From IMG/VR virus record IMGVR_UViG_2703718802_000006: DNA of 10,631 bases. The stretch is one strand, 5' to 3'. This document shows positions 3,015 to 10,631 of the stretch, piece by piece; positions within the stretch are counted from its first letter, which is position 1, and every line of letters starts with the position of its first letter. A model generated the notes under the pieces. It ran no database searches. It was not told where the DNA came from and saw only the letters and a program-made list of their open reading frames with translations. The stretch comes from a virus (taxonomy: Duplodnaviria > Heunggongvirae > Uroviricota > Caudoviricetes). The position numbers were made by a program, and so were the translations under genes.

Positions 3015-4229
3015 ATGAAATACAAGCCGGATCAATACATCATCTCTGATAGTTACGGAGTTTATTACGTCAGGATCTCAATTCCTATATGGCTTCGTAA
3101 TGCATTTGGTGGAAGAAAAACTCTCGTCCGTAGTCTGAACACTTCCGATCTTCGTGTGGCACGTAGGAAGCGTGATGTTATAGCAGACGAGTTTCACCAC
3201 ATCAGGCAAATTGCAGAGCCACCAAAACCGGACAGCCTGCAGGACACAATCAGCTATCTAAAGAGCGTTGCTAAGTACGCAAAAGCTGCCCCGAAAGCAT
3301 CAGCGCCAATTATCTCCCAATGCCCCTCTCTGAATAAGATGTTGGAGATTTACCTCACGCATAACGCTGATCGCCTGAAAATTGGAACATTAAGCAAGAC
3401 CAGGAAAGCCGTAGAACTGTTTCTGAATTACCTGCGAAAGAAGGATGTGGAACTAAACGATATCAACCGTACCACCGTTACAGGCTGGCTTGATCATCTC
3501 CGAGAAACAAAGGCAGTCCAAACAGTGGCTAACTATCTTTCTGCAATGGCAAACATTCTCGATCTTGCCTCTTCCCGATACCAGGACGCCCCACAGCTGG
3601 AAAGTAACGTATTCAGAGGGCATAAACTCAACACAGCGCAGAGCCGCCAGAGTTACGAGGCATTCACGGACGAAGAAATTACGAAGCTCATTAGCACGTT
3701 TAACAAGTTAGGAGAGGACGAATTAAGGGATTTAAGCGCCATAGCCGCTTATAGCGGAATGCGCATCAATGAAATAGCCAGTTTGAAATCTGACAATATC
3801 CGTGAAGTTGAGGGGGTGTTATGTTTCGATGTATTGGAAGGAAAGACAGCTAACGCTTCCAGGCTAATCCCATGCCATAGTGCGATTAAAACAATGGTCC
3901 TGGAACGCTGCCAGAAGCCGCACAACGGCTTTTTATTTTACCGTGCAAGTGTGACCAAGAGAGAGGACGGCAAGCGCTCCTCATGGCACGTAAACCGCTT
4001 TGGACGGCTTAAACGCGATATTCTCCCAGGGCAAGAAAACAAGGTGTTTCACTCGTACCGCCATGCCGTGATCAGTAAGCTAAACGCCGCCGGAGTGGAT
4101 GAATCTCGTATTGCCTTGCTCGCGGGCCACTCATTTGGAGAAACTGAATCTTTCAAGACGTATTCGAAATCCGTTCCTGAGCGAATAGTGAAGGAACTAA
4201 AAGAATATATCGAATTAATCAAATATTAA
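3015..4229 (+). CDS. Tyrosine-type site-specific integrase (phage integrase family), 404 aa
   Basis: ATG at 3015 with a G-rich SD (GGGGTGG). Box I Arg context (AYSGMRINEIASL), box II HxxR (FHSYRHAVISKL), a downstream LAGHS His and a C-terminal Tyr (FKTYSKS). The N-terminus (GVYYVRISIP...GGRKTLVRSLNTSDLRVARRKRD) matches the pattern of N-terminal arm-binding domains of island/P4-type integrases. Located next to the tRNA-derived att core. Confidence 0.9.
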   Translation: MKYKPDQYIISDSYGVYYVRISIPIWLRNAFGGRKTLVRSLNTSDLRVARRKRDVIADEFHHIRQIAEPPKPDSLQDTISYLKSVAKYAKAAPKASAPIISQCPSLNKMLEIYLTHNADRLKIGTLSKTRKAVELFLNYLRKKDVELNDINRTTVTGWLDHLRETKAVQTVANYLSAMANILDLASSRYQDAPQLESNVFRGHKLNTAQSRQSYEAFTDEEITKLISTFNKLGEDELRDLSAIAAYSGMRINEIASLKSDNIREVEGVLCFDVLEGKTANASRLIPCHSAIKTMVLERCQKPHNGFLFYRASVTKREDGKRSSWHVNRFGRLKRDILPGQENKVFHSYRHAVISKLNAAGVDESRIALLAGHSFGETESFKTYSKSVPERIVKELKEYIELIKY

Positions 4230-4243
4230 AATACCTTAAATGT

Positions 4244-4270
4244 GAGGGGGAATCCCCCTCTATTTTATTT
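4244..4270 (+). terminator. Bidirectional rho-independent terminator between convergent int and the 92-aa gene
   Basis: Perfect inverted repeat GAGGGGG-aat-CCCCCTC (4244-4260) followed by TATTTTATTT. The T-tract overlaps the stop codon (4265-4267) of the convergent minus-strand gene. Confidence 0.7.
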
Positions 4271-4543
4271 ATACCATACACTTTGCATATATTGCGATGT
4301 TTCAGATGAAATATTATACCAATATGCATAATTATTTGTTGCATCTACAACTATCAATTTATCATCACTATCCATCGCTTTATGAACTATTTGCGCTGCC
4401 TGTTCAGAATTGTAATGTGAATTAACATACCAATTTGATTCTGTAACTTTGACTGCTACGCCCAATGATTTAATAGCTTCGTAAACTGCTGGATAGTTTT
4501 TAGTTTTGATCAAGTCATAGGTTACAAAAAGATTGTTAGCCAT
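4265..4543 (-). CDS. Hypothetical 92-aa protein, AT-rich; predicted alternating beta/alpha pattern loosely reminiscent of Cas2/VapD-like ferredoxin-fold small nucleases (speculative)
   Basis: ATG at 4543-4541 with GGAGAG SD 8 nt upstream; stop at 4265. N-terminus LFVTYDL followed by a helix-like segment then VAVKVTESNWYVNS resembles the beta1-alpha1-beta2 start of Cas2/VapD-type proteins. Aromatic-rich C-terminus. No confident family assignment. Confidence 0.6.
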   Translation of the reverse strand: MANNLFVTYDLIKTKNYPAVYEAIKSLGVAVKVTESNWYVNSHYNSEQAAQIVHKAMDSDDKLIVVDATNNYAYWYNISSETSQYMQSVWYK

Positions 4544-4601
4544 TTTATTCTCTCCAGAGATTCAAAAGAATAAGCGCCGCTATAGGCGCTTTGAGATGTT
4601 T

Positions 4602-4730
4602 TTATTTCTTAGCTTTCTTGGTAGGGATTTTGATAGTTTCAGTTACCGTAGTGTCAGGATGTCTTTTAGCTTCAATGGGCTTAACAAACTGACCAGTTAT
4701 CGCAGAACGAACTACTGTTTTCTTAGCCAT
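4602..4730 (-). CDS. Hypothetical 42-aa basic small protein (MAKKTVVRSAITGQFVKPIEAKRHPDTTVTETIKIPTKKAKK), first gene of a two-gene cassette
   Basis: Internal ATG at 4730-4728 preceded by GAGGTG SD (5-nt spacer). The longer track ORF from 4832 adds a Cys-rich, low-complexity N-terminal extension with no SD and is unlikely. Lys-rich termini suggest nucleic-acid binding. A hairpin (4572-4591) plus U-rich tract separates it from the 92-aa gene. Confidence 0.4.
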   Translation of the reverse strand: MAKKTVVRSAITGQFVKPIEAKRHPDTTVTETIKIPTKKAKK

Positions 4731-4881
4731 AAAACACCTCATCTTGGAGATAAAGAGTGAACTGCTTACCCTTTTAAGAATAAGGGACAAACGAAGCGGC
4801 GTCAAAGAAAAAACACCACATATACACATCATTTACAAAACAAGCGCAATATGTGGTATCTCCATGCGATTTACATCACAA

Positions 4882-6753
4882 TCACCCCCCTGTGCTGCTC
4901 TGACCGCTCAAGGCTGACAAGGTGAGCGACTGTGTAAAACTGGCTTGTGAGGCTCTCGCCTGGAAATCAATGTAATCGCTCAGCCTTGAGCTATCGCTGG
5001 CGATAGTTAGCGGAACAGACGCTTCAAGATTGAGATTGAATACAGGTGCAAGATTGTACGCTGGCGCACTATTGGTGCTGGTTAGGGATGATATAGCAGA
5101 ATCACGAAGCGCTCCCCCTTTCAGAGAATCACCATTCAGGCCGTATTGTTCTACCGCTGTCCCTGTAGGCTGATCATCTATCCCTAACCAACCTTTAACG
5201 GCATGACCTACACTACGGCTGTCCCACCCTGTCTTGTCCTGCACCCAATCGGCAGCACTGTTGGCACTTCCTGTAACAGCACCATCATACAAACTCTGTG
5301 CCGCTGGCTTATCGCTACCAGTGAACCATTGAGGGAAACGTTCTTTCAGCCCTGCATTGATATCACTCACAACACTGGAAATCTCACCCACAAACCCAGT
5401 GATTTCTTTCGAGAGATTGCCTAAGCCCTCTCCAAGCATTCCCGCCGCTTCGGTGATAATTTTGGTTTTCCTTACCAGATCGTCGCCCCCATCGGCAAAG
5501 CCTTTCATCCAGCCTGTAAACAACTGATTGTCTATTCCATTCATCAGATTACCCATAGCAACACTCAAATCGCCATACTCATAAACCTGCTTGATCATTT
5601 CGTCGTTCAGCGTCTGACCGGACTCAATGAGAGTTCTTAGCGTCTTGTTATACTCTGCACCGTTGTTCATGAACATATCGGTGTAGTGCATCAGGTCATC
5701 ACCTAAACTCTCAATCAGCGTACCAATCTGAGCCTGTGACATACCACGGCGTTGCCCTTCATTCACCGTAGCTTGAACAAAATCGAGTGGTGAATCTTGG
5801 AACTTGGAAATCTGATCCTTACTCCATCCAAATTTGTTCATTATCGACGTAATGCCACCATCCCCACCCTTCCATTCGCCATTCTTCATTTGAGCATCGT
5901 TAACAGTCATGGCGAGGCGTTCACGCACATCTTTCATGTTATCGACGGCTTTTGAGGTATTAGCTGAATCAACACCGTGTTGCTGTCCCCAGGCCACCAT
6001 CGTTTTTATGGCGTTTGGGTTGGTTTTCACACGTTCACTCATTCTCACCAGTTCGAGGTTATCATTCCCTTTGTCAATAATTCGCTGCCCCACTCCGAGG
6101 GAGCCAGCCGTTAACGCAAGGCTTCCTAATACCCCACCACCGACGATAGGAGCATTCCCGCCCTTCTGAGCCTTTAGCTTAGTGGCTGCTGCGGCATACT
6201 GGGTACGCTGTGCCTGTGTCACTTTGGCTTGCTGTGCGGCTTCTCTGCGTAACAGGGTTACACGCTCACGAATAGATGCGTTCATACGGGCACTGGTCAG
6301 ATTGCCTTTGGCAAATTCCTCTGTTTGCTGACGTATGAAACGTAACGCTTCATATTGAGATTTAAGATCAAGTCCGTATTTACCTTTAATTCCTGACACT
6401 TGTAGCCCTGCATGGCGAAGTTTAAGCTCGGCTGTCTCTTGGTGCTTCTGTAGCTGCTGCTTCGCTTTCAGATTGGCCTTTTCATCCCTGGCTTTCTGCT
6501 TCTCTGCCGCACGTTGGGCTTTCATTTCCTTCGTATCACGAGGTTTATCATTAAAACGTGCATCATCGGCTTGTTGACGAGCTTTCTGTCTGCGCTGCTT
6601 CTGAGCCTGGAAGCGAATCTTGGGATCGGCTATTTTCTGGAAGTGCTTTTGAAGGTTATCCGCTGCGGCTTTAGCCAGAGCAATGCTCTGCTTATCCACC
6701 ACGAATGTAACCGTATTGCGGATCTGACTGACCGAAATATCAAGCATCGCCAC
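4882..6753 (-). CDS. Phage tail tape-measure-like protein (about 621-623 aa): N-terminal Lys/Gln/Ala-rich coiled coil, Gly-rich hydrophobic segment, globular C-terminal part
   Basis: Track start at 6753 is a GTG; an in-frame ATG lies at 6747-6745, with an 8-nt overlap with the upstream 65-aa ORF. The coiled-coil stretch (KAQRAAEKQKARDEKANLKAKQQLQKHQ...) and the GGGVLGSLALTAGSLGVG segment are typical of tape-measure proteins. The family call is by composition and architecture only. Confidence 0.55.
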   Translation of the reverse strand: MAMLDISVSQIRNTVTFVVDKQSIALAKAAADNLQKHFQKIADPKIRFQAQKQRRQKARQQADDARFNDKPRDTKEMKAQRAAEKQKARDEKANLKAKQQLQKHQETAELKLRHAGLQVSGIKGKYGLDLKSQYEALRFIRQQTEEFAKGNLTSARMNASIRERVTLLRREAAQQAKVTQAQRTQYAAAATKLKAQKGGNAPIVGGGVLGSLALTAGSLGVGQRIIDKGNDNLELVRMSERVKTNPNAIKTMVAWGQQHGVDSANTSKAVDNMKDVRERLAMTVNDAQMKNGEWKGGDGGITSIMNKFGWSKDQISKFQDSPLDFVQATVNEGQRRGMSQAQIGTLIESLGDDLMHYTDMFMNNGAEYNKTLRTLIESGQTLNDEMIKQVYEYGDLSVAMGNLMNGIDNQLFTGWMKGFADGGDDLVRKTKIITEAAGMLGEGLGNLSKEITGFVGEISSVVSDINAGLKERFPQWFTGSDKPAAQSLYDGAVTGSANSAADWVQDKTGWDSRSVGHAVKGWLGIDDQPTGTAVEQYGLNGDSLKGGALRDSAISSLTSTNSAPAYNLAPVFNLNLEASVPLTIASDSSRLSDYIDFQARASQASFTQSLTLSALSGQSSTGG

Positions 6754-6937
6754 CGCCTTTCTTACTCACCAGATAATTAAGTGCATCTGATACACTACGC
6801 CCACGATGTAATAACTGACGTAGATGACCGTGATCTATTTCAAGCACACGACACACTCCCGCCAGATTTAATAACTCTTCTGCTGTTTCAGCATTTACGG
6901 CGAGGTGAAGCCCCGCGCTTTTTACAATCACTTGCAT
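6740..6937 (-). CDS. Hypothetical 65-aa protein, translationally coupled to the downstream tape-measure-like gene
   Basis: ATG at 6937-6935 with AGAGGAAAG SD (about 8-nt spacer). Stop TGA at 6742-6740 overlaps the ATG (6747-6745) of the next gene in the arrangement ATGCTTGA. Confidence 0.45.
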   Translation of the reverse strand: MQVIVKSAGLHLAVNAETAEELLNLAGVCRVLEIDHGHLRQLLHRGRSVSDALNYLVSKKGGGDA

Positions 6938-6960
6938 TTATCTTTCCTCTTATTCTGGAA

Positions 6961-6995
6961 ATAAAAAAGGGCGGGAACACTGGGGAGATGTTCCC
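6961..6995 (-). terminator. Rho-independent terminator downstream of the capsid gene (second of two tandem hairpins)
   Basis: On the minus strand: GGGAACA-tctccccag-TGTTCCC (6995-6973) followed by GCCC and TTTTTT (6968-6963). A second hairpin (7019-7046, stem AGCCTGA/TCAGGCT) lies just 3' of the capsid stop, with a weaker U-tract. Confidence 0.65.
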
Positions 6996-7058
6996 AACGT
7001 TCACACGCCCTATTCAAAAGCCTGATTATTGCCTGCGGGTCAGGCTCCCGCTTGCTCA

Positions 7059-8090
7059 TTAAGCAGTGATGGTGATCTTCACTTGCATACCTAACGCATG
7101 GTTCACTGGTAATGCGCTGTTTTCGTGCATAACGTGGTAAGCATCGCCGCGCTCGCTCAGGTAGCCCCAAGAGTAGTATTCAGCAGGTGCAGCATCGATC
7201 AGCGCGAAGTTGCCAGAGGCAGCGCCGTAGATGTTCTGATAAGCATTTGTGCCTTTACTGAATACCGGAACCGCCACCATGTCAGCATCATCTGGCATCT
7301 GTGCAAGGATCAGCGGATCTGTCACTTTAACAATGTCGATAGGCGCACCAGGTAGGCTAAACGTACTAACACCAGGGAGAAGCTCGTGACGCTGGTAGAA
7401 TAGGTTACGGTCGTCATATGGCGCTACATACTGGAACGCCTTAGACATACTGTCAGAGAAGCGAATCTGGCTAAATGCAGCAGGTTTAGCGAATACGATC
7501 ACTCGTTCAATCTGTCCAGCCAATCCACCTGCGGCAGCCTGAACTTTGTCTAAGATGGCATCAAAATCCTGTGCCGCTGTCGCTGTGCTCACGCTGGCTG
7601 TCATTGGCACCACACCGAACAGTTCAGCATAAGAGATCAGTAGGTCATCAGTTGCAGGCGTATAAACTTCACCTTTGAACAGAGCACGGGCCAGGTAGGA
7701 TTCACGGGTACGAAGATAGGCAATCTTATGTTTCCCTGTGTACTCGGTGTACAGGTCGGTAACGGTTTGCTCGTAGTCCGTGCCTTGCACCCTTTTCCCT
7801 TGTACGTCTACTGGTTTGAAGGTGTCTTCCCTCGCAAACCAAGGGATCTCCACCAAATATTCTTTACCATTCTGACGCGCGGTAGTGTCGTGGCTTGATG
7901 AATAACGACTCTGCGGGGTGTTAAACAGGCTGTAGTTATCATCCAGAAGCTGTGTCACCACCACTTTCGGATTCTGAACACCTACCCCGTCGAAGAGGTC
8001 GAGAGCATTCATAAGATAGTTACGTTCCGGCAGAGCCTGGAAGATTGGCGCTAAATCGACCATCTCACGCCCAATTGCGATTTTACTCAT
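7059..8090 (-). CDS. Phage major capsid protein (lambda gpE-like family), 343 aa
   Basis: ATG at 8090 with AAGGAAG SD. Size (343 aa) and sequence character fit E-type major capsid proteins, and it sits immediately downstream of a gpD-like decoration gene (D-then-E order as in lambda). Strong terminator downstream. Confidence 0.75.
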   Translation of the reverse strand: MSKIAIGREMVDLAPIFQALPERNYLMNALDLFDGVGVQNPKVVVTQLLDDNYSLFNTPQSRYSSSHDTTARQNGKEYLVEIPWFAREDTFKPVDVQGKRVQGTDYEQTVTDLYTEYTGKHKIAYLRTRESYLARALFKGEVYTPATDDLLISYAELFGVVPMTASVSTATAAQDFDAILDKVQAAAGGLAGQIERVIVFAKPAAFSQIRFSDSMSKAFQYVAPYDDRNLFYQRHELLPGVSTFSLPGAPIDIVKVTDPLILAQMPDDADMVAVPVFSKGTNAYQNIYGAASGNFALIDAAPAEYYSWGYLSERGDAYHVMHENSALPVNHALGMQVKITITA

Positions 8091-8106
8091 TATTTATCTT
8101 CCTTGA

Positions 8107-8466
8107 TTAAGAGGTGAAGAATGGACGGCATACGAACCCTTTGGATTCGAGCGTGGTGATAGCTGCGGCGTGATTAGCTGCGTGCAGGTTGTCGGCTTTC
8201 AGTGCTACGAAGCTGCCAACATTAGGCGCACGTAGGACATTCACGGTTTTACCGTCGCCAGCACTCACGAAATCACTTACCACCACAAAGGCATCATCGC
8301 CGGAGGTGTATAGAGCGCCATCAGCGCCGATAACATCGCCGCATTCAATATCTGCTGGCAGGTCGAAAACACGGCCTTCTACGACTGCAAAAGAATCAGT
8401 GGCGTAGCTCACTACGTCAGTGAAACTCTTACGAATTGGGAAAAGTTCGGTTAGGTCTACAATCAT
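8107..8466 (-). CDS. Putative head decoration protein (lambda gpD-like), 119 aa
   Basis: ATG at 8466 overlaps the stop of the upstream 71-aa ORF (ATGA), with AAGGAA SD. Small Gly/Ala/Val-rich beta-type protein directly preceding the major capsid gene. Assignment is by position and composition only. Confidence 0.5.
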   Translation of the reverse strand: MIVDLTELFPIRKSFTDVVSYATDSFAVVEGRVFDLPADIECGDVIGADGALYTSGDDAFVVVSDFVSAGDGKTVNVLRAPNVGSFVALKADNLHAANHAAAITTLESKGFVCRPFFTS

Positions 8467-8678
8467 TGTTGTTTGATTTCCTTGGATTTGATTGCGATCC
8501 GTTCCTGCATACTAAGTTGAGGTGTGTCCTCAGAAGGGAAATACTGGTCTACAGCTTTTTCTATTTCTTCAACGGTACATCCTGCCATTTCAGCCACTTT
8601 AGCTATTAACTCAGGATTAACTTGAATCACTTCGGATTTGTATTTTAGGATTCGGTCGCGATTGTTTATTAAGAACAT
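8463..8678 (-). CDS. Hypothetical 71-aa protein, first gene of the capsid operon; possible HTH-like segment (LIAKVAEMAGCTVEEIEKAV)
   Basis: ATG at 8678 with GAAGGAACAACACA upstream. Four-nt overlap with the decoration gene start. Function unknown. Confidence 0.5.
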   Translation of the reverse strand: MFLINNRDRILKYKSEVIQVNPELIAKVAEMAGCTVEEIEKAVDQYFPSEDTPQLSMQERIAIKSKEIKQQ

Positions 8679-8747
8679 TGTGTTGTTCCTTCGCGTTATA
8701 ACTGCGTTTATCCTTCCATTAATAACGGAAGTGTTACATGCAGATTG

Positions 8748-8771
8748 TTAAAAAGGGGCGATTAAGCCCCT
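8748..8771 (-). terminator. Rho-independent terminator (minus strand) at the 3' end of the ~670-bp non-coding region, just upstream of the capsid operon promoter
   Basis: Minus strand reads AGGGGC-ttaatc-GCCCCT followed by TTTT (stem 8771-8766 / 8759-8754, T-tract 8753-8750). Confidence 0.6.
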
Positions 8772-9347
8772 GGAGAATATGCCCTTGTTAGAAAGCATTC
8801 TGTTAAAATCATTTTCGTTTCGGAGGATTATGATGTTAAAGAAAGGTTTCTTGAAAAAATGAAGGGCGCAACTGTTACGAATAACAGAAGTAGGATCGCC
8901 CGTCATTGCTCCCACTTCAAAACAGAAGCCCTTCTGTCATGGCGAGAAGTGGGAATGGAATTTCTTATCACCCTGGAATAGTAATAAGAGATTGCCAGCC
9001 TGAACGTAACTACCACTGACGGCGTTTATTCAGTCTGACTGCTTATAATCCTAACGGGGTTATAAGGTTTAGAGCACGGAATATGCTCTCTGAAAGAGAA
9101 TGTGCGCGGTGATTGTTCGTTACCACCCGACACAAGTGGGAACGCCCGCGCCACCCTTTGGAACTAAACACAACAAAGGAAAACAACCAGCTTTCAGAGA
9201 GGATATTCAATGGGAGAGAGCGCCGCCTATGGGAAACGGCATTCTCAGGGAGTGCGTATTGTTATACGAGGGTGGAGTGATTCTAATACCTACCCTATAA
9301 CTTATTATGACACAAATAGCACAATATGTCAAGATATTTCGTAATAT

Positions 9348-9686
9348 TTATGTTATAGCGCATTCTTCCGCGATCTGGATGGCAAGCTCTCCGAGTTCAA
9401 CGGTGATGTGTTCCATAGCGAGGGCAAGCTCCTCCATATCATTGGCAATGCGCCACGCCTGATCCACGGTGACGGTATCCCCGTTCATCTGCACCAGGTG
9501 CTCTACAGCAGCATTCCAGTGTTCAAGGGCGGTGATTGCCTGTTCAGTGTATTGCAGCGCTTCCAGGAGCGCGGAGGGCGTTCTCTCACACCACGCCCTA
9601 TTAACAAGCCACAGGGCTGGTAGATGCCAAATATCGTGGAAATAGTTAATTAGGGTGTTCATGGTGTCCATAGTTTTATTATTCAT
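9348..9686 (-). CDS. Hypothetical 112-aa acidic, predicted helical protein (second gene of a coupled pair)
   Basis: ATG at 9686-9684 preceded by AAGGAA (7-nt spacer). Its start overlaps the stop of the upstream 127-aa gene as ATGAATAA. The 161-aa track ORF from 9833 is an out-of-frame extension into the 127-aa gene and is rejected. Confidence 0.5.
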   Translation of the reverse strand: MNNKTMDTMNTLINYFHDIWHLPALWLVNRAWCERTPSALLEALQYTEQAITALEHWNAAVEHLVQMNGDTVTVDQAWRIANDMEELALAMEHITVELGELAIQIAEECAIT

Positions 9687-10062
9687 TGTTGTTTTCCTTG
9701 TCGTCAAAGAGAATATCAAAATCTTGTATGTGGTGAGATAAGCCGTTAGTTTGGGAATACCCCACCCAGTCAACATAGTTTTCTGCGTATAGCTGCCACT
9801 TCTTAAGATTCGATGAATCAACACGGTATTCACGGCGGCGGCGTGGTTTATAGAAGACGTTATCCGAAGATGCTAAAACATCCTGCAATAGTTCAAACTC
9901 TGCCCCTACGGGCACCGTTGCAGGGTATTCTATTATTTCGGTGATCCATTCTCCTGGAATAGACTCTCGTGCGAGGTCTTGTAGAGAAGAGGTGTATTTA
10001 CGTTTGCTGGCGCGAGTGGCTTTTTCGATTCTAACAATGTTACTTCGTTCTTTTCGTCCCAT
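9679..10062 (-). CDS. Hypothetical 127-aa protein with basic N-terminus and acidic C-terminal tail
   Basis: ATG at 10062 with GAGGAA SD. N-terminus is Arg/Lys-rich (MGRKERSNIVRIEKATRASKRKY), there is an internal KPRRRREYR stretch, and the tail is acidic (FDDKENNNE). Stop TAA at 9681-9679 overlaps the next gene. Confidence 0.5.
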   Translation of the reverse strand: MGRKERSNIVRIEKATRASKRKYTSSLQDLARESIPGEWITEIIEYPATVPVGAEFELLQDVLASSDNVFYKPRRRREYRVDSSNLKKWQLYAENYVDWVGYSQTNGLSHHIQDFDILFDDKENNNE

Positions 10063-10076
10063 TCATTCCTCGTAGA

Positions 10077-10161
10077 GGGAAACTTCCGTGTTTTCTCGTT
10101 AATGTCCATACTGCGTAAAATGCAAATAACCAATACATAGCGATGATCATAAAAGTTTCCC
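10077..10161. promoter_or_regulatory. Pair of 9-bp inverted repeats (GGGAAACTT / AAGTTTCCC) bracketing the intergenic promoter region upstream of the 127-aa/112-aa pair
   Basis: GGGAAACTT at 10077-10085 and its exact reverse complement AAGTTTCCC at 10153-10161, 67 bp apart, inside the 109-bp gap between the 94-aa gene stop and the 127-aa gene start. Confidence 0.35.
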
Positions 10162-10171
10162 TATTGTGTGT

Positions 10172-10456
10172 TTAGAAATTAGAGTAGATAAATTCTACAT
10201 TGTCTCGTTCGATGTGTTTCAGCGTGAATGATAGATAATGGCTTTCATCGTCGATATCGATCACACCAATGTTGCGCAGCGCACGAAGCCAGAATCTGAT
10301 CCCGTTATCACTTACACTGGATTTATCAGATAGCTCTCCGTAAGAAATTTTAGTTTTTCTGCCCTTCCAGAACCAGATAAGCGCATAATAAACGCCCTTC
10401 CCGCTATCGTTGATCTGTATCTGGTTTGTGTTGTTCAATTTTATGTATTGTATCAA
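10172..10456 (-). CDS. Hypothetical 94-aa protein, putative winged-helix-type DNA-binding regulator; TTG start
   Basis: The ORF contains no ATG or Met codon. Its first codon is TTG (10456-10454), preceded by a perfect AGGAGG SD with a 5-nt spacer. The segment ISYGELSDKSSVSDNGIRFWLRALRNIGVI resembles a recognition helix plus wing. AT-rich. Confidence 0.5.
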   Translation of the reverse strand: MIQYIKLNNTNQIQINDSGKGVYYALIWFWKGRKTKISYGELSDKSSVSDNGIRFWLRALRNIGVIDIDDESHYLSFTLKHIERDNVEFIYSNF

Positions 10457-10469
10457 TTAGTCCTCCTGA

Positions 10470-10601
10470 TTAGTTCCAGTGGCGTTGTATTGTGGCGATC
10501 CCTTTCTTCATTAGTTCAGCCGTTTGTCTTTGGGTCAATCCTTTGGATTTGTGTTCCTGTACTTCTTTACGGGTGTTGTTACCTTTAACTTTCTTTCTCA
10601 C
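10470..10601 (-). CDS. Possible 43-aa helix-turn-helix small protein (GTG start), very tentative
   Basis: Minus-strand ORF from GTG at 10601 to TAA at 10472-10470 translates to MRKKVKGNNTRKEVQEHKSKGLTQRQTAELMKKGIATIQRHWN. The segment LTQRQTAELMKKGIATIQRHW has a helix-turn-helix pattern. No good SD and a non-ATG start; below the ORF track size cut-off. Confidence 0.25.
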   Translation of the reverse strand: MRKKVKGNNTRKEVQEHKSKGLTQRQTAELMKKGIATIQRHWN

Positions 10602-10631
10602 TTTCTAGACTGGCCCCCTGAATCTCCAGAC

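Follow-up and report, generated by a model that had tools for sequence, protein, structure and literature searches.

The question addressed here is what two small, AT-rich genes between the integrase gene and the structural genes of an integrated element in Escherichia coli are, and whether they belong together. The stretch of DNA analysed, referred to below as the window, comprises 10,631 nucleotides of the Caudoviricetes virus record IMGVR_UViG_2703718802_000006 from IMG/VR, and the region in question (positions 4230-4880) encodes on its minus strand a 42-aa protein (p42) and, downstream of it, a 92-aa protein (p92), next to the tyrosine integrase gene int. The initial annotation, made from the sequence without database searches, had seen in them a candidate toxin-antitoxin (TA)-like or defence/accessory module. 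The reading we favour, at a probability of about 0.55, is that the region is a moron cargo cassette in a variable slot, and that p92 is a CRISPR-independent solo member of the Cas2/VapD group which would be expressed in the lysogen and have a nucleic-acid role. For any specific activity of p92, our confidence is much lower than for this overall picture. The comparisons set out below show p92 to be solo, CRISPR-independent, exchangeable and recurrent in accessory positions, with a predicted Cas2-superfamily fold and the corresponding motifs, and an accessory or defence role of the cassette is plausible.

Past int, the genes of the element lie on the minus strand in the order p92, p42, a 623-aa gene, a 65-aa gene, the capsid gene and more small genes. 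The 623-aa protein (gene 4882-6753, minus strand) matches a PHROG tape-measure family (1e-96), and the interval between int and this tape-measure-like gene is a variable cargo slot. Its content varies among elements whose int genes are 87-95 % and whose capsid genes are 96-99 % identical, and siblings that have an 87 % identical int and neither p42 nor p92 carry in the slot either an STM1697/YdiV-like EAL-domain protein or a 224-aa protein. A slot protein of 223 aa matches Salmonella STM1697, a YdiV-like EAL-domain regulator, at 6.5e-60. In sibling loci the slot was located at 5001-5650 (L119), 5231-6258 (L125) and 4743-5484 (L123). When the window was compared to the related element of E. coli AR_0128, p42 was 98 %, int 95 % and the capsid gene 99 % identical, but p92 only 66 %. 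Given these differing contents and the divergence of p92 among otherwise near-identical elements, p92 is one exchangeable cargo of the slot. The cassette as a whole is 100 % identical in four complete E. coli genomes and approximately 86 % identical in nine others.

The two genes are also separable from each other. In the 5,426 complete E. coli genomes, a p92-like gene was found in 114 and a p42-like gene in 14, and 100 of the 114 with a p92-like gene are without p42. The position upstream of p92 homologues is taken by p42 in a few Enterobacterales, by a DUF3606 gene in most enterobacterial prophages, by a DUF2188 gene, or by no small gene at all. In turn, p42 together with the same hairpin and Shine-Dalgarno (SD) sequence is also found ahead of a different cargo, an unrelated Cys-rich protein of 155 aa, both in Serratia and in a sibling element of E. 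coli. In PADLOC-DB 2.0, p92 matched weak Cas2 models and no other defence model. Hence, a TA or abortive infection (Abi) pair, as put forward in the initial annotation, is not supported: the genome counts differ (114 versus 14), partners are swapped, a conserved terminator lies between the genes, no TA or defence model beyond the weak Cas2 ones is matched, and the pairing was seen in a few Enterobacterales, p92 occurring mostly without p42. They are better regarded as separable modules.

The p92 protein matches PHROG 1090, a phage family listed with function not known, over its full length (E = 8.2e-22, residues 3-90 on profile positions 2-88 of 90), and it matches no Pfam family and neither the Pfam nor the NCBIfam Cas2 models. 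Structure prediction produced a confident ferredoxin-like model with a C-terminal helix, and the top 16 Foldseek matches to this model were all Cas2, BPSL1038 or VapD, in agreement with the Cas2/VapD-like beta-alpha-beta pattern that had initially been discerned in the letters of the N-terminus; a search of the viral structures in BFVD returned uncharacterised proteins only. The sole direct match of the p92 sequence to Cas2 was to the PADLOC model Cas2_II (E = 2.8e-4). A p92 homologue, gp35 of Staphylococcus phage SN8, lies above the Pfam CRISPR_Cas2 cut-off (29.4 versus 23.8 bits) and matches 11 Cas2 models, and the profile of its group aligns with the p92 family profile with an hhalign probability of 99.7 % over 88 columns. 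Because p92 is itself below threshold, while SN8 gp35 passes and its group matches the p92 profile, the membership of p92 in the Cas2 superfamily to which profiles and model point is indirect.

The conserved residues agree with this placement. Among 65 family members, Y9 and D10 are each present in 64 and L11 in 63, S36, D58 and D61 are found in all 65, and W38 is essentially invariant. D10 is at the end of strand 1, the position of the metal-binding/catalytic Asp of Cas2, and the YDL found there is also invariant in the group from phages of Firmicutes. The Ser-x-Trp motif falls in the beta2-beta3 region.

The family is large, a full hidden Markov model (HMM) search yielding 2,267 clusters at 50 % identity, nearly all of 90-95 aa, and tblastn located homologues in temperate phages of Staphylococcus pseudintermedius, Enterococcus, Clostridium and Mannheimia. 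In Enterobacterales, at least three lineages of small elements have the p92-like gene beside int, and in the P2-like R18C, P2-EC53 and prophage D6 it is between the tail-fibre assembly and sheath genes, i.e. at the fun(Z) site; for R18C, a pair of short morons (219 and 279 bp) had been reported there and left unexplained (PMC6823313). In the Enterococcus, Staphylococcus, Clostridium and Mannheimia temperate phages it is counter-oriented in the early region and shares the orientation of int and cI. A gene that stands alone in this way, on the same strand as the integrase and repressor genes, has the classic layout for expression in the lysogen. Across phages, p92-like genes thus placed occupy accessory positions and not virion modules.

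To describe the surroundings of the family, the two nearest open reading frames (ORFs) on each side of p92 homologues in approximately 63 diverse loci were compared to Pfam. No family was present next to more than two members, and neither a recurrent p92 partner nor recurrent Cas families were found in this census; outside the Enterobacterales it showed no enrichment of integrase, TA or defence families. A k-mer array scan found a CRISPR-like array within 10 kb of none of 105 p92 loci. One homologue on a JGI metagenome contig (P0093) is flanked by the cas3 and cas5d genes of a type I-C operon and lies on the strand opposite to them; that operon has a canonical cas2 of its own.

In 11 loci, alpha/beta-proteobacterial or from IMG/VR (L008, L035, L040, L044, L046, L049, L051, L059 and L085-L087), the p92 homologue is closely followed by a conserved small ORF of 42-76 aa in convergent orientation, for example at 2297-2527 on the minus strand of L049, with the motif LH.VAK.LG.L.HVDGLPFG. 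In ten of the 11, the 3' end of this ORF reaches 7-43 nt into the end of the p92 homologue, the distance being positive in L059. The ORF matches no Pfam family, does not occur in the window and may be a real p92 partner in those lineages.

The features of the cassette are collected in Table 1. Both genes that had been read from the window are ORFs with an SD of their own and are annotated coding sequences (CDSs) in RefSeq, and they are indeed richer in AT than their surroundings: the GC content is 31 % for p92, 38 % for p42 and 35 % for the whole cassette, as against 46 % for int, 49 % for the tape-measure-like gene, 50 % for the capsid gene and 59 % for the flanking chromosome. The terminator scan gave five matches where 0.2 were expected, and these include the intergenic hairpin and the GC-rich hairpin between p92 and int; in all, terminators at three to four places bracket or divide the cassette. 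With its deviating composition, terminators on both sides, a slot content that differs among similar elements and a promoter candidate, the separately signalled AT-rich cassette has the features of a moron, and the placement next to int that had been called a moron position holds. Rfam and tRNA scans of the window gave no match, and thus no sign that the cassette hairpins belong to a known RNA family.

Table 1. Positions of the cassette features and of the adjoining integrase gene in the window
Feature	Position	Strand	Details
int, tyrosine integrase	3015..4229	+	DUF6538 + Phage_integrase; Pfam and PHROG matches; fixed edge of the cargo slot
GC-rich hairpin GAGGGGGAATCCCCCTC between convergent p92 and int	4244..4260	.	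Terminator scan; terminator for int, cassette end
p92 gene	4265..4543	-	92 aa; SD GGAG 4555-4552; ORF and RefSeq CDS (hypothetical protein)
Intergenic terminator/attenuator hairpin	4572..4591	-	AAGCGCC-N6-GGCGCTT then ATTCTTTT; terminator scan; 7-bp stem
p42 gene	4602..4730	-	42 aa; SD GAGG 4740-4737; ORF and RefSeq CDS (hypothetical protein)
Sigma-70-like promoter candidate	4777..4805	-	TTGACG-17 nt-TATTCT; 9/12 consensus match
Long RNA hairpin and U-tract (to ~4797)	4809..4863	-	Likely intrinsic terminator of the 623-aa gene

An 8-bp inverted repeat upstream of the genes had been suggested as an operator. The repeat is real, though 9 nt long (ACCACATAT at 4815-4823 and ATATGTGGT at 4849-4857), and it forms the core of a hairpin of approximately 55 nt with a predicted folding energy (dG) of -27.7 kcal/mol (z -3.3). 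Since this hairpin begins 19 nt past the stop at which the 623-aa gene ends and is followed by a U-tract, the operator was rejected, and the repeat is probably the stem of an intrinsic terminator of the upstream tape-measure-like gene. Both arms are kept in relatives, with a G-U-compatible change in Kosakonia. In the promoter candidate that follows, the relatives from E. coli AR_0128, Kosakonia, Citrobacter and Pectobacterium retain the spacing and the -35 hexamer, and the -10 hexamer varies.

Between the genes, in a gap of 58 nt, the hairpin with a U-rich tail that had been noticed by eye was recovered by the terminator scan. It stands 10 nt past the p42 stop codon and 16 nt ahead of the p92 SD and is conserved as a structure: in AR_0128 it shows wobble changes, and Serratia and Pectobacterium form it from different sequences. 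A similar hairpin precedes p92 in the DUF3606-p92 loci and also precedes the 155-aa cargo gene. The promoter scan found no promoter-like site between p42 and p92, and together with the conserved hairpin this suggests that p92 may be made by attenuated read-through. The GC-rich hairpin at the far end had been described as a bidirectional terminator. It is present, but a good T-run follows it on the plus (int) strand only and the tail is weak on the p92 strand. Equivalent G-run hairpins were found downstream of p92 homologues in other Enterobacterales loci.

The p42 protein is as tiny and basic as had been stated (pI 10.5). Differences at codon positions 1, 2 and 3 number 7, 13 and 24 relative to the Serratia homologue and 7, 7 and 17 relative to that from Pectobacterium, with 10-14 synonymous codon changes, and ten residues are invariant across 14 homologues. 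From the bias to the third position and the invariant residues it follows that p42 is a real coding gene, and the substitution pattern indicates selection at the protein level. An extended ORF of 76 aa (4602-4832) was considered and rejected, as the extension is not conserved and relatives split the region into 34 aa and 42 aa. There were zero matches for p42 in Pfam, PHROGs, NCBIfam and PADLOC, and a PDB match was spurious. We infer that p42 is an independent small basic protein heading such cassettes and not a dedicated antitoxin. On an IMG/VR contig (L117, 2929-4249) the gene for a 58-aa p42-like protein is immediately followed by one for a protein with a SocA/Panacea antitoxin domain and by a 91-aa ORF; hence, p42-like genes head other small cassettes too.

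Put together, these elements suggest how the cassette might operate. The upstream late gene would end in the long terminator hairpin, and transcription of the cassette would then start at the sigma-70-like promoter candidate. p42 would be translated from its own SD, the conserved but imperfect intergenic hairpin would attenuate read-through, p92 would in turn be translated from its own SD, and the GC hairpin shared with the convergent int would close the transcription unit. p92 would in this way be made from the integrated element, would act as a small Cas2-like dimer that binds nucleic acid or is a nuclease, and may serve in conflicts with other phages or mobile elements, by exclusion or counter-defence. 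A role in conflicts is proposed because relatives of p92 occupy the immunity slot fun(Z) in P2-like phages and, in temperate phages of Firmicutes, the lysogeny side.

Several observations weigh against this reading. p92 itself is below every curated Cas2 threshold, and the window allele has Ala-Val at positions 30-31 where 60 of 65 relatives have Trp-Ala. The promoter is a consensus match only, and has to be called a candidate because the number of promoter-like matches is not above that expected from shuffled sequence. The other cargo found in the slot, the EAL-like regulator, is not a defence gene, and none of the alternative slot cargo proteins matched a defence model in PADLOC-DB 2.0, so a conflict-related role of p92 is a guess from position. 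Finally, two tandem p92-like domains are inserted (residues ~365-540) in P0136, a 1,507-aa Baseplate_J-like protein, and this hints at a non-enzymatic binding role of the domain. P0136 also carries a CBM_5_12 module.

The tandem insertion is one of the two findings on which a different view of p92 can be built, namely that it is a non-enzymatic ligand- or protein-binding module (ACT-like or structural), regulatory or virion-associated, and that its likeness to Cas2 is ancestral only. The other is that several proteins of 200-260 aa are natural tandem duplications of the p92 domain; for one of these (P0160) a single-sequence AF2 model had a pLDDT (predicted confidence score) of 44 and was unusable for dimer geometry. 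We regard this view as very doubtful, as the acidic residues D10, D58 and D61 are conserved, with D10 at the Cas2 catalytic position, and the gene is found in accessory positions and not in virion modules. On another view, p92 and p42 would be a type II TA or Abi pair, with p92 as a VapD-like nuclease toxin and p42 as an antitoxin made in excess through the intergenic attenuator. VapD toxins have the same fold, the Campylobacter jejuni VapD-VapW complex being among the Foldseek matches, the layout of a small upstream gene and a Cas2-like gene recurs with p42, DUF3606 and DUF2188 and partner swapping is known in TA systems, and a terminator between the genes would yield a surplus of the upstream product. 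Such a pair is nevertheless quite unlikely: p92 homologues are mostly solo with no recurrent neighbour family in the census, most E. coli genomes with a p92-like gene have no p42, p42 is also ahead of the unrelated 155-aa protein, the genes do not overlap, having 58 nt and a terminator between them, and p42 matches no DNA-binding or antitoxin family.

The Cas2 likeness could alternatively serve counter-defence, with p92 as a Cas2 mimic that poisons spacer acquisition by Cas1-Cas2, or disturbs host CRISPR adaptation in some other way, and so shields the element and its relatives. Though p92 is in the Cas2 superfamily, its family is carried by temperate phages of CRISPR-bearing hosts, one homologue is inside a type I-C cas operon and a dominant-negative effect was suggested for a Cas2 homologue encoded by a virus (PMC10541130), the p92 model ends in an alpha-helix where Cas2 docks Cas1 with a C-terminal strand (PMC10491678), none of the 105 loci has a CRISPR array within 10 kb, and the family is common in lineages and contexts without nearby cas genes. 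We therefore give mimicry a low probability. A further possibility concerns p42, which might act mainly in cis as a translated leader, with termination at the hairpin tuning read-through into whatever cargo follows, in which case the "pair" would be one regulated gene. The block of p42, hairpin and SD is kept as a unit ahead of two unrelated cargo genes, the p42 stop codon is 10 nt ahead of the hairpin, and there is no promoter-like site between p42 and p92. However, p42 is conserved at full length, with its invariant residues and many synonymous changes, a pattern typical of a trans-acting protein, and in the DUF3606-p92 loci the gene ahead of a similar hairpin encodes a different protein family, one that is known. 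A purely cis-acting p42 hence appears improbable.

The favoured reading, a moron cassette with p92 as a solo Cas2/VapD-like cargo, can be set against the systems it most resembles. Like Cas2 (PF09827/TIGR01573), p92 is about 90 aa long, has a hydrophobic N-terminal strand that closes with Y-D-(L/I) and bears a Ser-x-aromatic motif in the beta2-beta3 region, and it is connected to Cas2 by weak direct HMM matches and a strong indirect link. It differs from Cas2 in that its loci have no cas1 or CRISPR array nearby, in the C-terminal helix that takes the place of the Cas1-docking strand in the model, and in being carried solo by phages and integrated elements. BPSL1038 of Burkholderia pseudomallei (PDB 7VXR; PMC10491678) likewise stands alone in a genome context without CRISPR, has like p92 an Asp after strand 1 and a Ser...Trp motif, and may share with it the C-terminal helix predicted in the p92 model. 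However, the sequence similarity is not significant (profile E = 0.87), the motif spacing differs (D11-x20-SST versus D10-x25-S36), and BPSL1038 is chromosomal and not described as phage cargo (PMC10491678). VapD, known from the VapD-VapX and VapD-VapW pairs, is also small and of Cas2-type fold, but p92 has no conserved cognate antitoxin gene and is separated from its upstream gene by a terminator, and the helices that VapD has in the beta1-alpha1 and alpha2-beta4 loops (PMC10491678) are missing from the p92 model.

Similar in design are the fun(Z) morons of R18C (PMC6823313) and the Z-region of P2-EC53. R18C gp22 is 68 % identical to p92 and of equal length, and these loci repeat the order of a small upstream gene, a terminator hairpin, a 279-bp gene and a GC hairpin. 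There, however, the upstream partner is DUF3606 and not p42, and the host is a complete P2-like myovirus, not a small int/capsid element. The slot itself resembles the hotspots of phages and satellites (P4 psu-int, P2 old/tin, Z/fun; PMC9122126, PMC13586616) in its conserved flanks, in cargo that is swapped rapidly beside int and in AT-rich, separately signalled genes, and differs from them in that defence models do not recognise its cargo, one example of which is an EAL-like regulator of the motility/virulence type.

In 2012, solo homologues of Cas2 were described on mobile elements (PMC3506569), and a Cas2/VapD nuclease sub-family was established with BPSL1038 in 2023 (PMC10491678). Some members of PHROG 1090 are already labelled Cas2 by annotation pipelines, and our literature searches found no functional study of the p92 family. 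Solo Cas2-like genes and PHROG 1090 are thus already known, and the p92 cassette is a further member in an ordinary moron context: a well-delimited cassette, placed in the variable slot of a small element that encodes a capsid, and not a system of a new kind. For more than a decade, Cas2/VapD-like proteins that stand alone outside CRISPR loci have been on record with almost no biology assigned to them, and the p92 family is large and is repeatedly found where temperate phages keep accessory genes that are expressed in the lysogen, including the immunity slot fun(Z) of P2. If p92 does exclude phages or disturb CRISPR adaptation, a widespread "hypothetical" phage gene would gain a function and the Cas2 fold a second life. 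A wider proposal, which we consider unlikely, is that PHROG 1090 is a large unrecognised solo Cas2-like branch expressed from the integrated state in the temperate phages and satellites of Gram-negative and Gram-positive hosts, as a single-gene exclusion nuclease or a Cas2 decoy that stops spacer acquisition by the host's CRISPR system, with p42 or DUF3606 setting the dose via the leader/attenuator.

As to the setting of the cassette, positions 1-2730 of the window are E. coli chromosome, with paoC, paoD and a truncated LysR gene, and a small integrated element follows. The LysR-family gene (2188-2730) is a C-terminal fragment, annotated as a pseudogene without its N-terminus, and its location beside the element is consistent with an old insertion/deletion scar at the chromosomal junction. 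The element spans 3015-10631 of the window and beyond, and a full copy of approximately 13.5 kb was located at 13698-27243 of locus L002. In AR_0128 the element is approximately 13.5 kb long, adjoins tRNA-Thr and includes a replication-initiator-like gene, and neither a terminase nor a portal is recognisable among its genes. The major capsid gene is of the lambda E type, the 65-aa gene lies between it and the tape-measure-like gene, and a small gene occupies the place of lambda D. As no terminase, portal or tail genes were recognised in the host element, it looks more like a capsid-encoding satellite than a decayed prophage. A stretch of approximately 670 bp (8679-9347) gave no Rfam or tRNA match and is gene-free in the RefSeq copies (the gap corresponds to 19450-20118 of L001); it includes short ORFs only, and may serve the element as a regulatory region or an origin.

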